IMG/VR virus record: IMGVR_UViG_2740892431_000022
DNA length: 35,244 bases
Direction: 5' to 3' (one strand)
From: a virus
Taxonomy: Duplodnaviria > Heunggongvirae > Uroviricota > Caudoviricetes
Shown here: piece after piece, positions 9,947 to 32,917 of the stretch
Position numbering within the stretch: position 1 is the first letter of the stretch
Layout: every line of letters starts with the position of its first letter
The notes under the pieces: generated by a model
Database searches by the model: none
Told to the model about the DNA's origin: nothing
The model's input: the letters and a program-made list of their open reading frames with translations, nothing else
Translations under genes and position numbers: made by a program

Positions 9947-10135
9947 TTATGCCGCATTTGACGTGGGTTTTAATCCCAGTTTTACGGCAATTTCATGGGC
10001 TTTGCCGTAACGAGCTTTGGTCTGTCCATTGAGAACACGATAGACCTCATTGCGGCTGTAGCCGTGTTCTTCGGCCCAGCGGGTAAACGTGATACCACGC
10101 TGACGGAAGAGATTTTTAACTTGTTCGGAAGTCAT
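9947..10135 (-). CDS. ner: Ner-like DNA-binding protein (Ner/Nlp family)
   Basis: 62 aa; ...FTRWAEEHGYSRNEVYRVL...GKAHEIAVKLGLKP parallels the Mu Ner HTH and C-terminal segment; AAAGGAGA ribosome-binding site; first gene of the leftward operon. Confidence 0.75.
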   Translation of the reverse strand: MTSEQVKNLFRQRGITFTRWAEEHGYSRNEVYRVLNGQTKARYGKAHEIAVKLGLKPTSNAA

Positions 10136-10182: not shown

Positions 10183-10211
10183 ATTATGAGAACTATTGTT
10201 CTCATTGTCAA
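10183..10211 (-). promoter_or_regulatory. Early promoter Pe (minus strand): -35 TTGACA, 17-bp spacer, -10 CATAAT
   Basis: Reverse complement of 10206-10211 is TTGACA and of 10183-10188 is CATAAT; about 45 nt upstream of the ner-like ATG. Confidence 0.6.
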
Positions 10212-10214
10212 TGA
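10186..10214. promoter_or_regulatory. Operator-like palindromes overlapping Pe
   Basis: ATGAGAAC-tatt-GTTCTCAT (10186-10205, 8-bp arms) fills the Pe spacer; TCATTG-t-CAATGA (10202-10214) overlaps the -35. Confidence 0.55.
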
Positions 10215-10221
10215 GGTTTGT

Positions 10222-10647
10222 GTGAATTTTGATTCTCTTTGCGCGTCGCGGTTCAAAGCTGAGCGTTCGCGGTTATCACTCAAGCAGGCTGAAGTAGCAG
10301 CCCTTTGTGGCGTTTCAAGAGAAATGTGGGGGAAATATGAACGAGGGGTTGCTGTTCCCGGAGGTGAGTTACTTGCAGCCTTTGCAAGAATTGGGGCCAA
10401 TGTACAGTTCATTCTTACCGGGGAGTCATCAGGTATAACTTTATCACGTGATGAAATGGAGTTACTGCAGCACTACCGGCAGGCACCATTACAGGTCAAA
10501 GGTTCAGTTTTGTCGGCCTTGACTACTGGCTCCTCCAGAGAACGGGCGGAACAGGTTATTCATGGAGATGTTCTGGGGAATGTTATCAAAGGTAACGTAA
10601 CCATAGGAACAGGTGGAATAATGAACAAAAATACCAAGAGAAGATGA
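10222..10647 (+). CDS. XRE-family HTH repressor-like protein
   Basis: HTH ...LSLKQAEVAALCGVSREMWGKYERG...; divergent from the ner-A-B operon; GTG at 10222 has GAGG 5 nt upstream; the ORF-track ATG at 10186 lies inside the operator palindrome (a leaderless start there is not excluded). Confidence 0.7.
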   Translation: MNFDSLCASRFKAERSRLSLKQAEVAALCGVSREMWGKYERGVAVPGGELLAAFARIGANVQFILTGESSGITLSRDEMELLQHYRQAPLQVKGSVLSALTTGSSRERAEQVIHGDVLGNVIKGNVTIGTGGIMNKNTKRR

Positions 10648-11630
10648 GTAAAGAGAAGCAAACAGTTAACGGGGATGTGGGTAACGTTGTCAGCGGTGAT
10701 GTTACCATTCATAACTATTCTGCTGACATACTTCCTTCGGCCCAGCAACCAATTTCGTTGCTGCAAAAACGCGATTTACACAGATTGATGGATGAATTGG
10801 TTGATCTGGGGGAAAGTAAGCGCGAGCTATGGATGACGATCCACACGAAACTTAATACCAAAACAGTTAATGAAATGACTGCGGCTGATTATCATGGTGC
10901 GGTTGAGATCCTTCAGAGATATGCACAACAGATCCAGAATATGAAGGACTGTAATCTTCTGGTCAGCAAAATAATGGCGCTTACTGACCCTGGGTATCGT
11001 CTTGACCGTGACAGATACTGTCTGAAGCATTTCGGTACAACCCATCTTAAAGGCCTAGACAAAGAGCAGTTGCAGGCTGTGTTTGGTTATTTTGATGATC
11101 TGCTGAATATTCGTGATGAGAGTAAAACTCTATCACCTCCATCGGAAAGCGGTGCAAAATCAGTCGCAACTGTACCAACCAGAAGCTGGAAGCCTCATGT
11201 AGTAGTGTTGGGGGGAGTGTTAGTTCTTGTAGCAATATTTTTCGTGGGAATGATTGTGTTCGCTGGTAAATGGGGAAATGCCAAAGCAGTAGCTTCTACT
11301 GAAACCAGCGTTTTTAACATTAAAACCAACGATAAAATAATAGAAGATTCCATCCCCGCACTGCGCAGCATGTTTCCAGGGTTAAATAAGTACTCAGATG
11401 ATTTCCATTCGGTTTCAAGCTACAAGCAAAAAACGGGCTGGCATACCCTTAAATTTACTGTATCAGCAAAGGCATCCGTCCCCGAAAATTATAGTGTTAA
11501 GGGCAAGGTTTGTTACATTAACATAAGCCCTGATGGTAGTTATGCTCGGGTTTTGACTGCTCCATGTCGTTCACTGCTACTTGATCAGCAAAGCACTCCT
11601 GACAGTAAATACCGTTTTATTCTTAAATAG
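10644..11630 (+). CDS. Single-pass membrane protein (328 aa), unknown function
   Basis: ATG overlaps the repressor stop (ATGA); roughly 180-aa N-terminal domain, one TM (HVVVLGGVLVLVAIFFVGMIVFAG), roughly 120-aa C-terminal domain with two Cys; sampled GC about 33-47 percent. Confidence 0.75.
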   Translation: MSKEKQTVNGDVGNVVSGDVTIHNYSADILPSAQQPISLLQKRDLHRLMDELVDLGESKRELWMTIHTKLNTKTVNEMTAADYHGAVEILQRYAQQIQNMKDCNLLVSKIMALTDPGYRLDRDRYCLKHFGTTHLKGLDKEQLQAVFGYFDDLLNIRDESKTLSPPSESGAKSVATVPTRSWKPHVVVLGGVLVLVAIFFVGMIVFAGKWGNAKAVASTETSVFNIKTNDKIIEDSIPALRSMFPGLNKYSDDFHSVSSYKQKTGWHTLKFTVSAKASVPENYSVKGKVCYINISPDGSYARVLTAPCRSLLLDQQSTPDSKYRFILK

Positions 11631-11720
11631 AAAATAACAGCTGAATTACCATGGGATCAGAAAAAAGACAAAGGCGGCATCATGCTGCGTTCTGAAATTT
11701 TAATGTAAAAGGTGATGAAC

Positions 11721-12302
11721 ATGGCAGGGATTCAGGTTATCGCAGGAAGTTTTCCTAAAGGGTGGGCAAGCATGGGGTTCGGTACCATCGTGTTTGCCAA
11801 AAAACCAAAACAAGGCTTTCCTGAAAATATTGTATTAAATCTGAAAGAAGAGCTTTTATCGATTGAACTTGCGGATAGTGAAGAGGAAAACCGTATAGGT
11901 AAGGCGGCAGGCGCAGGTTTGCTTGGTGGATTAATCTTTGGTGGTGCAGGGTTGGTCATTGGAGGTTTGCTTGGTGCGGCGGACAAGACGAAAAAAACTA
12001 TCACTTTTAAGGCAATGTTTACGGGAAATAGGTTACTTCTGGCTAAAACAGATTCAAAAACTTTTGTAAAACTTCAGTCAATTGCTGCTGATAATGCCCA
12101 TAACGCATCTGTAATCAACATGAAGCAAACTAATAGGGGCGATGTTTCTTCTCGTAAACAACTAACAGAAAATCCACAGCAGCAAGACTTACCTGCGCCC
12201 GCTACAACAGTAAAAATGACTGCCAAAGATAAGTTAGAATCGGCTCTTGGGCTGGGAATCATCGTTATAGCTGTTTGGGCAATAATACACTTCTTTTTTT
12301 AG
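11721..12302 (+). CDS. Glycine-zipper membrane protein (about 193 aa), unknown function
   Basis: AAGGTGA ribosome-binding site before the ATG at 11721 (ORF opens at 11712); AAGAGLLGGLIFGGAGLVIGGLLGAA segment plus C-terminal hydrophobic helix LGLGIIVIAVWAIIHFFF. Confidence 0.7.
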   Translation: MAGIQVIAGSFPKGWASMGFGTIVFAKKPKQGFPENIVLNLKEELLSIELADSEEENRIGKAAGAGLLGGLIFGGAGLVIGGLLGAADKTKKTITFKAMFTGNRLLLAKTDSKTFVKLQSIAADNAHNASVINMKQTNRGDVSSRKQLTENPQQQDLPAPATTVKMTAKDKLESALGLGIIVIAVWAIIHFFF

Positions 12303-12304
12303 TG

Positions 12305-12328
12305 CAGCCCTTCAGGGCTGTTTCTGTT
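12305..12328 (+). terminator. Putative rho-independent terminator after the cargo operon
   Basis: Stem CAGCCC/GGGCTG (12305-12310 with 12315-12320), loop TTCA, then TTTCTGTT. Confidence 0.5.
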
Positions 12329-12339
12329 CAGGAGGTATC

Positions 12340-12816
12340 TTAAGGATTATCCGGGGCGTTTTCCTGTTTGCCGTACTTCGGAGACGAACAACATTCTGTT
12401 GGCTGACCGGTGAGTTTACGTAACTCCTTCATGAGCAGCTCCTGATCGTAAACTGTCATCAGTGCCGCAATGGTGGCATGCAGTGCATCGGGCAGTATCC
12501 AGGGTTGCCGGCCCGTGGGGCATATAACATCCAGCAGCTCATTCGTCCGACAGATACGCTCCTCGCCGTATGACAACAGGCCCTGTCCCGTGTATTCCTC
12601 TAGCCTGATCACTGTGCCACCCCGTGGCTTCTGCCAGGTCGTCAGATCTTCGCCATTCATACGGCGCTCATTCTCCACGTCAGCAGCATCGACAATGACG
12701 CTGTTTCCGAGTTCCTGTTTCACCATCTCTTCTATCCGCGCCAGTACGTAACTTTTACCGCTGCCCACAGGACCGGACACAGTGACAGTGATGACCGGAT
12801 TCAGTGTGTGCGTCAT
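12340..12816 (-). CDS. Small P-loop NTPase or kinase-like protein (158 aa)
   Basis: Walker A GPVGSGKS at residues 15-22, then VIVDAAD; AGGAGA ribosome-binding site; opposite strand to both neighbours. Confidence 0.75.
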   Translation of the reverse strand: MTHTLNPVITVTVSGPVGSGKSYVLARIEEMVKQELGNSVIVDAADVENERRMNGEDLTTWQKPRGGTVIRLEEYTGQGLLSYGEERICRTNELLDVICPTGRQPWILPDALHATIAALMTVYDQELLMKELRKLTGQPTECCSSPKYGKQENAPDNP

Positions 12817-12877
12817 ATCGTATTCTCCTCTGTGAATAATTCATCGTTTATCCTGCACATCCCGTATCCCCGGCTCT

Positions 12878-12927
12878 CTTAACGCGCTTTAAAATCCTTC
12901 GCGCCCTGTATTTGTGATGCTGTCTCC
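12878..12927 (+). promoter_or_regulatory. Putative late promoter for the lysis operon
   Basis: CTTAA (12878-12882), TTAAAATC (12889-12896) and CTGTCTCC (12920-12927); the same arrangement recurs upstream of two other late operons. Confidence 0.4.
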
Positions 12928-12946
12928 ACCAAACGAGGAGACACAC

Positions 12947-14997: not shown

Positions 14998-15308
14998 TGG
15001 TCGATATTACCCGGGTACGCCGCGAATCCCTGCGCTGGAGTCTGCTGGTTGCCCTGAACAAAACCCGCCCTTACACCGCCAGCGAAACGTTGCTGCTGGA
15101 CGTGTCCCGCGCCATCTACCCGGACACCACGCAACTGGAGCTGCGCCGGGAGCTTGATTATCTGGCAGATCGCAAAATGGTGGAGCTGGAGAAGAGACCG
15201 TCCGGTGACTGGTTTGCCGATCTGAGTCGCCTTGGTGTGGATATTGTGGAATACACCGTGGAATGCGGCCCGGGTATTGCCCGACCGGAAAAATACTGGA
15301 GTGAGTGA
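14997..15308 (+). CDS. Hypothetical protein (103 aa), possible winged helix
   Basis: Coupled ORF between the lysis genes and the terminase genes; no family recognised. Confidence 0.55.
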   Translation: MVDITRVRRESLRWSLLVALNKTRPYTASETLLLDVSRAIYPDTTQLELRRELDYLADRKMVELEKRPSGDWFADLSRLGVDIVEYTVECGPGIARPEKYWSE

Positions 15309-15310
15309 TT

Positions 15311-15853
15311 ATGGGACGTCGCAGCAGCATTGATTCTCTGCCGACGGATGTCCGCCGCTGGCTGGAGCGGGCGCTGACGGAGAATAATTTCACCGGCTAT
15401 GCTGAACTTGAAAGTTTGTTAAAAGAGAGGGGATATGTGATAACCCGCTCCTCCCTGCAGCGGTTCGGCTACAAAATGGAGCAGCAACTGGCCCGTGTTC
15501 GTGCGGCAACTGAAGCAGCCAGGCTGATGGCTCGTGAAGCGGGGGATGATGCGGATGACCGTTCTGCGGGACTGATGACGTTGATCCAGACGGAGATGAT
15601 CGACATCCTGATGCGTCTGCAACAAGTCAGTGACGAGAATGATCCGACTGATCGGGCGAAATTGCTGGCCACCGCTTCCCGCAATATTGCGACCCTGACC
15701 CGCGCCTCTGTCAATCTCAAGCGTTTTCAGAGTGAGGTCAAGGAAAAAGCAGAACTTGCAGCGAATGCGGCCGAGAAAATTGCCCGTAAGGGCGGATTGT
15801 CAAGCGACGCAGTACAGGCACTTCGTCGCGAGATTCTGGGGATTGCCACATGA
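15311..15853 (+). CDS. Mu gp27-like protein (DUF3486-type, putative small terminase subunit)
   Basis: MGRRSSIDSLPTDVRRWLERAL... N-terminus; immediately upstream of the large terminase. Confidence 0.7.
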   Translation: MGRRSSIDSLPTDVRRWLERALTENNFTGYAELESLLKERGYVITRSSLQRFGYKMEQQLARVRAATEAARLMAREAGDDADDRSAGLMTLIQTEMIDILMRLQQVSDENDPTDRAKLLATASRNIATLTRASVNLKRFQSEVKEKAELAANAAEKIARKGGLSSDAVQALRREILGIAT

Positions 15854-32863: not shown

Positions 32864-32917
32864 GCTTTTTAAACGCCTTTAATATCAGCGTTCCCGCACG
32901 GGGGCAATACTGCCCCC

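Follow-up and report, generated by a model that had tools for sequence, protein, structure and literature searches.

A phage protein family with an unusually small P-loop-type core domain at one edge of the hypermosaic region of enterobacterial BcepMu-like prophages

Between the cargo genes and the late genes of a Mu-like prophage lies a small gene on the opposite strand, whose product carries an amino-terminal phosphate-binding loop, raising the question of what kind of protein this is and what it does for the phage. We analyzed the gene within a stretch of 35,244 nucleotides, here called the window, which is a BcepMu-like (genus Bcepmuvirus) transposable prophage of E. coli, 95% identical to phage PhiKM over the common parts. 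Genes for a Ner-like HTH protein, an IclR-type HTH protein, a DUF3102 protein, an rve transposase and an ExeA-like ATPase lie leftward of the locus, and rightward follow the holin, SLT, spanin-like, Mu gp27-like, terminase and Mu portal genes. An earlier description made from the DNA letters alone, referred to below as the sequence-only reading, had reported a 158-residue open reading frame on the minus strand with the motifs GPVGSGKS and VIVDAAD and a ribosome-binding site; all of these were located, with VIVDAAD corresponding to residues 40–46. The arrangement it gave, convergent to a cargo operon and divergent from a lysis operon, was also recovered, as the gene faces three plus-strand genes spanning 10186–12302 and diverges from the genes of a Holin_2-3 holin (Pfam, E 1.5e-41) and an SLT transglycosylase. 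The convergent genes are:

10186–10647, plus strand: gene of an Xre-type HTH (Xre/HTH_31) protein
10644–11630, plus strand: gene of a 328-aa protein
11712–12302, plus strand: gene of a 196-aa protein

As the HTH gene at 10186 occupies the c repressor position of relatives, divergent from the Ner-like gene at 9947–10135, the cargo operon is probably a repressor gene followed by two membrane-protein genes. The two latter genes probably share a transcript with the repressor gene in the lysogen and are thus candidate genes for lysogenic conversion or for exclusion. A similarity of the 328-aa protein to the amino terminus of Flk, a flagellar regulator, falls far short of the cut-off (NCBIfam PRK10715, E 3.5e-12), and a Flk_N-like protein was found again in the matching region of another prophage (L039). 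Among the rightward genes, the DUF3486/Mu gp27-like, small-terminase-like gene is an open reading frame of 182 codons in the window (15305–15853); its counterpart in the otherwise matching prophage of strain IAI39 (L002 2964–3509) has an internal stop and a pseudogene annotation.

The features of the P-loop gene and its surroundings, with the evidence for each, are:

12340–12816, minus strand: coding sequence with ATG start of the 158-aa protein, a short allele of the phrog_3787 family (open reading frame call, profile match, dN/dS)
12825–12830, minus strand: ribosome-binding site GAGGAG, 8 nt 5' of the ATG (sequence; the AGGA core is retained in diverged relatives)
12751–12774, minus strand: Walker A motif GPVGSGKS, residues 15–22 (residue counts in 54 non-redundant members)
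12592–12816, minus strand: mini P-loop domain, residues 1–75 (profile search of 1.84 billion representative proteins; alignments)
12664–12669, minus strand: E50-R51 pair in the loop after strand 2 (residue counts)
12595–12615, minus strand: hydrophobic strand 3, TVIRLEE, residues 68–74, ending in E74 (residue counts; strand 68–75 in the first structure model)
12412–12564, minus strand: helical 'module c', residues ~85–135 (alignments; split genes in locus L015)
12340–12366, minus strand: allele-specific tail, codons 151–158 and stop (DNA alignment with the 242-aa PhiKM allele)
12817–12946, unstranded: divergent control region of 130 bp in common with the holin/late operon, with a putative regulatory role
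12304–12321, plus strand: terminator-like hairpin between the convergent gene ends, with its T-run on the plus-strand side (sequence)

Several independent observations identify this as a genuine gene and not a chance open reading frame: the protein matches the phrog_3787 profile with an E-value of 2.1e-107 (359 bits; residues 1–157 on positions 1–157 of 242), homologues are annotated as coding sequences in 570 of 5426 complete E. coli genomes, chromosomal in all cases, the exact 158-aa protein is found on at least 1000 contigs, and codons 1–150 differ from the PhiKM allele by 13.5 synonymous and 11.5 non-synonymous changes, corresponding to a dN/dS of ~0.26. The gene is thus under purifying selection and, far from being the orphan it had been taken for, belongs to a populous family. 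Copies 100% identical to it reside in prophages of IAI39, CE10, ST131 strains and others, the 158-aa allele being identical in more than 20 genomes among the matches listed. Its G+C content of 56% is similar to that of the phage backbone, compared with ~42% for the neighbouring cassette. phrog_3787 is a PHROG family without assigned function, so that membership gives no mechanistic explanation, and the literature search found no paper on the P-loop protein.

Within the family, conservation is concentrated in the first 75 residues, termed the head. An HMM search of 1.84 billion representative proteins yielded 67 matches at E ≤ 1e-3 in proteins of 70–364 aa, nearly all of which, except the close E. 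coli alleles, are confined to profile positions 1–75. Distant homologues, standalone or fused, likewise match the phrog_3787 profile over positions 1–75. Free-standing heads of 70–90 residues are frequent, exemplified by a Yersinia protein (P0094, 71 aa) and by L030 (70 aa), P0082 (81 aa) and P0071 (88 aa). The common layout comprises a strand, the Walker A motif, a helix, a second strand, the E50-R51 pair, W61, P64 and a strand ending in E74. Residue counts over 54 domains, non-redundant at 80% identity and given in window numbering, confirmed the amino-terminal P-loop, with G20 and K21 present in all 54 domains and G15 and S/T22 in 53 each. Outside the loop, E50 is kept in 51 of 54, R/K51 and E74 in 45 each, and W61 and P64 in 37 each. 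One cluster has GKN instead of GKS/T, which disfavours Mg-NTP hydrolysis as a universal activity of the family.

The second motif of the sequence-only reading fared differently. Its aspartate, D43, is retained in 13 of the 54 domains, so that VIVDAAD is not a family feature, and VIVD was rejected as a Walker B motif. A better Walker-B-like candidate, judged from conservation, would be the TVIRLEE strand ending in E74, which fits the sequence pattern of a Glu-type motif. The first structure model places strands at residues 7–13, 40–45 and 68–75, and both models show the Walker A pattern GxxxxGK[ST] between the hydrophobic strand 7–13 and the helix 20–35. With three predicted strands at most, the head has too few for the canonical P-loop NTPase core, a parallel sheet of at least five strands, and such a sheet was not found here. 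AlphaFold models reached a mean pLDDT of 48.7 with 15 close sequences and 68.8 with 59 diverse sequences, with reasonable confidence for residues 11–40 and the carboxy-terminal helices only. As these models are poor to moderate, and the better one forms no sheet and leaves residues 62–80 disordered, the fold is not established. P-loop character is instead indicated by weak and consistent PDB matches over the strand-loop-helix-strand element to UreG, ABC, kinase and designed 'phosphate-loop' chains, as well as by sporadic AAA or ABC Pfam matches in family members.

The sequence-only reading had described size and P-loop placement as kinase-like, and a small nucleotide or polynucleotide kinase, using the P-loop and VIVD as Walker A and B, for instance in counter-defence repair, would fit the GxxGxGKS motif that follows an amino-terminal hydrophobic strand in a small soluble protein. 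Sub-threshold matches to guanylate, uridine and cytidylate kinase models were indeed obtained over the first 25–50 residues, all of them scoring 10–15 bits against cut-offs of 180–263 and covering the P-loop only. The NCBIfam guanylate and uridine kinase models gave 12–13 bits over residues 7–58, and kinase matches in general were restricted to the P-loop at E ≥ 0.05. The conserved domain of ~75 residues leaves no space for the substrate-binding or lid regions of nucleoside-monophosphate and polynucleotide kinases, what follows residue 75 is replaceable or absent, and the Walker B aspartate such a kinase would use is not conserved, as described above. Searching the weak structure models against known folds, a check that the sequence-only reading had proposed, matched nothing and recovered no kinase fold. 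We therefore regard a kinase as very improbable.

Other P-loop families resemble the head over a similarly short element. The GPxGSGKS-type Walker A and the following helix are shared with ABC ATP-binding proteins, and the best PDB matches are ABCB nucleotide-binding domains over 20–35 residues. In contrast to these proteins of ~240 aa, the 158-aa phage protein lacks the Q-loop, the LSGGQ signature, the Walker B-D-loop and the H-loop, and has no transporter partner. With scores of 13.6 bits for Pfam ABC_tran (cut-off 25) and 11–15 bits for NCBIfam ABC models (cut-offs 266–875), and with the signature motifs absent, an ABC transporter ATPase was rejected. On these findings, both the kinase and the ABC readings are essentially excluded. 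A further parallel is offered by UreG and HypB (SIMIBI/G3E GTPases), with which the head has in common a hydrophobic strand, the GPVGSGK[ST] loop, a helix, a second strand (VIVDAAD compared with VITNDI) followed by acidic residues, and a candidate Walker B strand that ends in Glu instead of Asp. Profile matches to UreG in the PDB span query positions 4–42 with non-significant scores (E ~1e-3), and the alignment of the window protein is limited to its first ~45 residues; unlike these GTPases of ~200 aa, the phage domain of ~75 aa lacks the NKxD motif for base specificity, the CPH motif for metal binding and strands 4–7.

In the profile search of PDB sequences overall, the matches covered the strand-loop-helix(-strand) element only, the best E-value of 6e-5 being the sum of two weak ABCB1 stretches; the longest alignments were to UreG and ABC domains, and none of the matches was convincing. 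Among the best matches were also laboratory constructs such as the 'phosphate-loop protein' 6c2u and the designed ATPase 9jix (E 5e-4 to 2e-3), which present a strand, P-loop and helix in a very small polypeptide and imply no homology. A Pfam scan of the window protein and 59 relatives gave sub-threshold or sporadic AAA, ABC and kinase matches restricted to the P-loop, with no Pfam family spanning the mini P-loop domain. Database entries name family members 'ABC transporter ATPase' and 'EcfA2' (RefSeq/PGAP, UniRef), fragments 'KAP family NTPase' or 'P-loop NTPase fold protein', and one homologue 'Ni2+-binding GTPase' (JGI). Since the model thresholds support none of them, these names are P-loop-only labels, and 'ABC transporter ATPase', 'EcfA2', 'KAP family NTPase' and 'Ni2+-binding GTPase' are propagated misannotation.

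Behind the constant head, homologues vary: the sequence that follows residue 75 can be exchanged or is missing altogether. Alleles of 141, 158, 182, 242/247, 255 and 291 aa differ by whole carboxy-terminal modules. The 158-aa allele of the window has one helical module and lacks the last module (~85–90 aa) of the 242/247-aa alleles, corresponding to the last ~85 of the 242 phrog_3787 profile positions. Its module c, with the pattern W-LPDA-HA-IAAL-YDQ-L-ELRK, is found as well at the extreme carboxy terminus of the distant fused proteins P0034, P0036, P0057 and P0062. The modules, module c among them, are encoded separately in the metagenomic locus L015 (6001–7009). There an 88-aa head gene is followed by a 161-aa gene and a 76-aa gene with the modules that E. 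coli, Salmonella and Citrobacter proteins have in fusion with the head; the 76-aa gene matches the final module of the E. coli allele of 247 aa. This Rosetta-stone split suggests that the head and the helical modules cooperate and yet are separable.

The short form of the window gene could also be read as decay, in which a low-GC cassette replacing the Dam region would have left a 3'-truncated pseudogene. In the DNA alignment with the PhiKM allele, homology stops directly after codon E150, at the start of low-GC DNA, and the 3' end of the gene is a recombination boundary; together with the missing terminal module of ~90 aa this is what a remnant would look like. Nevertheless, prophages with different cargo carry alleles at 83–87% identity that have the same 158-aa layout and likewise finish in PDNP, and an even shorter 141-aa form exists. 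In addition, the head is a standalone gene in other phages, and the identity of the allele across genomes does not point to decay. Given the persistence of the short allele elsewhere together with the purifying selection, a decaying remnant is disfavoured and we give it very little credence. Damaged copies are found in other strains: many E. coli copies are frameshifted or truncated after residues 40–75 (P0020–P0029, P0033, P0035, P0044, P0050, P0053, P0055), and the 182-aa alleles (P0028, P0030) show an in-frame loss of residues 51–124. Evidently, the P-loop gene is dispensable in many lysogens.

The position of the gene had been called non-standard for a Mu phage. This stands with respect to BcepMu itself, in which no homologue was found and gp18–20 on the other strand occupy the interval, and the gene is not a member of the core gene set of Mu/BcepMu-like phages. 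It does not apply to the enterobacterial sub-group, where a homologue directly neighbours the holin gene in divergent orientation in all BcepMu-like elements examined, and where this slot opposite the holin/late operon is kept down to 32% protein identity. Divergence from Holin_2-3/SLT was observed in the window, in PhiKM and in Salmonella, Citrobacter and metagenomic BcepMu-like prophages, with the following gene forms:

PhiKM-type E. coli prophages: 242 aa, followed by small genes and then Dam
Salmonella enterica prophage: P0034, 255 aa, 36% identity, followed by Dam
Citrobacter braakii / Salmonella: P0039, 291 aa
Metagenomic relative (L015): P0071, 88 aa, 32% identity, followed by the separate 161-aa and 76-aa genes
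E. coli elements: 158-aa allele at 83% identity and 141-aa allele, with quite different neighbours

As a constant anchor, the P-loop gene thereby marks one border of a hypermosaic region whose contents include Dam, a variety of repressors and small genes, among them Flk_N-like ones. Most relatives have a Dam-type (MethyltransfD12) gene just 3' of the P-loop gene on the same strand (for example L003 5014–5778, L011 7932–8702, L037 6295–7059 and L039 6202–6966), and the window prophage has the repressor-linked membrane cassette in place of Dam. A tblastn search against 50,697 phage genomes gave PhiKM as the sole match.

Outside the Mu-like phages, the head domain recurs at the junction of lysis and packaging genes. 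A Yersinia mollaretii lambdoid prophage carries it immediately behind a set of lysis genes that includes holin, DUF2514 and LysC, and ahead of HNH, TerS and TerL. On at least eight IMG/VR contigs from HK97-like phages, for which Pfam confirmed Holin, HNH, Terminase_2 and TerL, the homologue lies co-directionally between the lysis genes and HNH-TerS-TerL. Further occurrences are in early regions rich in DNA methyltransferases and on large viral contigs of 140–258 kb, one of which harbours Acb2/Tad1-hairpin and Sequestin-family genes within ~6 kb of the homologue in a jumbo-phage-like region. A metagenomic homologue, P0087 (L010 1919–2398), has a peptidoglycan-binding PG_binding_1 domain fused amino-terminally to the mini P-loop, a combination that is odd for a nucleotide-binding module and stems from one 2.9-kb contig only.

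These contexts bear on when the gene would be expressed. Since the HK97-like homologues sit inside a late operon between lysis and packaging genes, we infer expression during lytic growth, the recurrence of this junction, which is also a classic moron slot, suggesting late expression as a hint. The divergent orientation in BcepMu-like phages leaves the timing open, so that expression from the prophage is possible as well. Such expression would be expected of a moron that acts in defence or superinfection exclusion, where a small NTPase would block incoming phages in the lysogen. The edge position beside hypermosaic cargo and the immunity region would suit this role, as would an accessory gene with its own ribosome-binding site that is transcribed opposite to the late operon, and family members showed sporadic weak matches to the P-loops of AriA, PtuA and DndF. 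However, no defence family was reached in PADLOC-DB v2, where the best match of the window protein (E 0.007) covered the P-loop only, as did the sporadic matches of 59 family members; the G+C content is backbone-like and unlike that of true cargo, the co-directional position in the HK97-like late operon is not one of prophage expression, and a consensus promoter scan of 12817–12946 found no sigma-70-like site. We consider a prophage-expressed defence moron improbable.

The same interval, for which promoter mapping had been proposed, contains blocks conserved in diverged phages, namely TTTTAAAGCGCGTTA (12880–12894, inverted-repeat-like), TGGAGACAGCAT (12917–12928) and GCAGGAT (12850–12856), which are kept where the proteins have diverged to 32–51% identity. 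In the Salmonella element the counterpart of TTTTAAAGCGCGTTA is a perfect TTAAAG-N2-CTTTAA, and the motif has 4 matches in the window compared with 0.29 expected. TTTTAAAGCGCGTTA may be the binding site of the late activator, and the control region is compatible with an activator-dependent divergent promoter. Two copies of TTTTAAAGCGCGTTA with two mismatches lie in other intergenic gaps of the window, at 1834–1848 and 32867–32881.

A control region that is conserved and common to the holin operon could further be taken to indicate an auxiliary late factor that either helps lysis timing or packaging or controls the adjacent late promoter or the Dam gene (com/mom-like). The recurrence of the gene beside lysis cassettes and just upstream of HNH-TerS-TerL would be in line with such a factor, as would the Dam gene that follows it at once or at a short distance in prophages of the PhiKM type, of Salmonella and others, and the PG_binding_1 fusion, were it not a single short contig. 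Yet the gene is missing from BcepMu and from most phages that share these lysis and packaging genes, the window phage keeps it without Dam, and hypervariable tails and frequent frameshifts are unlike a conserved machine component. An auxiliary late factor therefore appears quite unlikely to us.

Taken together, we tentatively favour, at somewhat less than even confidence, an accessory protein of the lytic phase in which a minimal P-loop head, probably oligomeric, is combined with variable adaptor tails to modulate the host or host immunity. The protein would be accessory and cytoplasmic and composed of two modules, the P-loop head (1–75) and the helical module (~85–135). The head would bind a phosphate-bearing ligand, be it an NTP, a nucleotide or the backbone of a nucleic acid. 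Because it has three strands only, it probably self-associates to attain a stable sheet and any active site, in keeping with the idea, from work on P-loop prototypes, that such small fragments need self-association to bind phosphate ligands. The variable tails would link the head to changing host or phage partners, consistent with helical modules that appear shuffled, fused or split into separate genes across the family. In the window, the gene would be transcribed from the compact divergent region in common with the lysis/late operon. The basic phage cycle can do without the gene, as it is missing from BcepMu and carries frameshifts in many prophages, and the likeliest role would be that of a late-infection modulator of the host or its immunity rather than of a core replication, lysis or packaging enzyme. 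Slots adjoining lysis cassettes are, however, general hot spots for morons, so that the synteny may say little on function.

A more specific proposal is a counter-defence factor, whose oligomeric head would sequester a nucleotide immune signal or nucleic acid, or whose tails would block host immune proteins. A small, accessory and fast-shuffling gene with a constant head and variable tails conforms to this proposal, the phosphate-binding motif is kept even where the Ser/Thr is lost, homologues are often near phage DNA methyltransferases, and one lies close to the Acb2/Tad1-hairpin and Sequestin-family genes mentioned above. These associations are purely circumstantial, as methylases and anti-defence genes are commonplace in such regions, and the protein has no similarity to any known sponge or inhibitor; we hold a counter-defence factor to be possible, with a probability on the low side. 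Bolder still is the idea that the head of 70–75 residues is a natural, autonomously folding minimal P-loop whose oligomers bind nucleotides or nucleotide-derived immune signals, acting alone or with exchangeable adaptors as a late counter-defence sponge or switch. To our knowledge, a head of this length is far below the size of any characterised Walker-A NTPase, and we put this idea forward as a rather doubtful one.

What emerges is a gene of a known phage family, phrog_3787, whose core is an unusually small P-loop-type domain that is not described in Pfam. Should the head bind nucleotides, by itself or in oligomeric form, it would parallel in nature the 'P-loop prototype' peptides made in the laboratory to model the origin of NTPases, and would constitute a new, widespread phage domain outside Pfam, present in about one tenth of complete E. 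coli genomes. A practical gain is the correction of names propagated on the basis of the P-loop only. As a fixed anchor beside hypervariable cargo in the BcepMu-like prophages of E. coli, Salmonella and Citrobacter, the gene can thus serve as a landmark for mining lysogenic-conversion and immunity genes.
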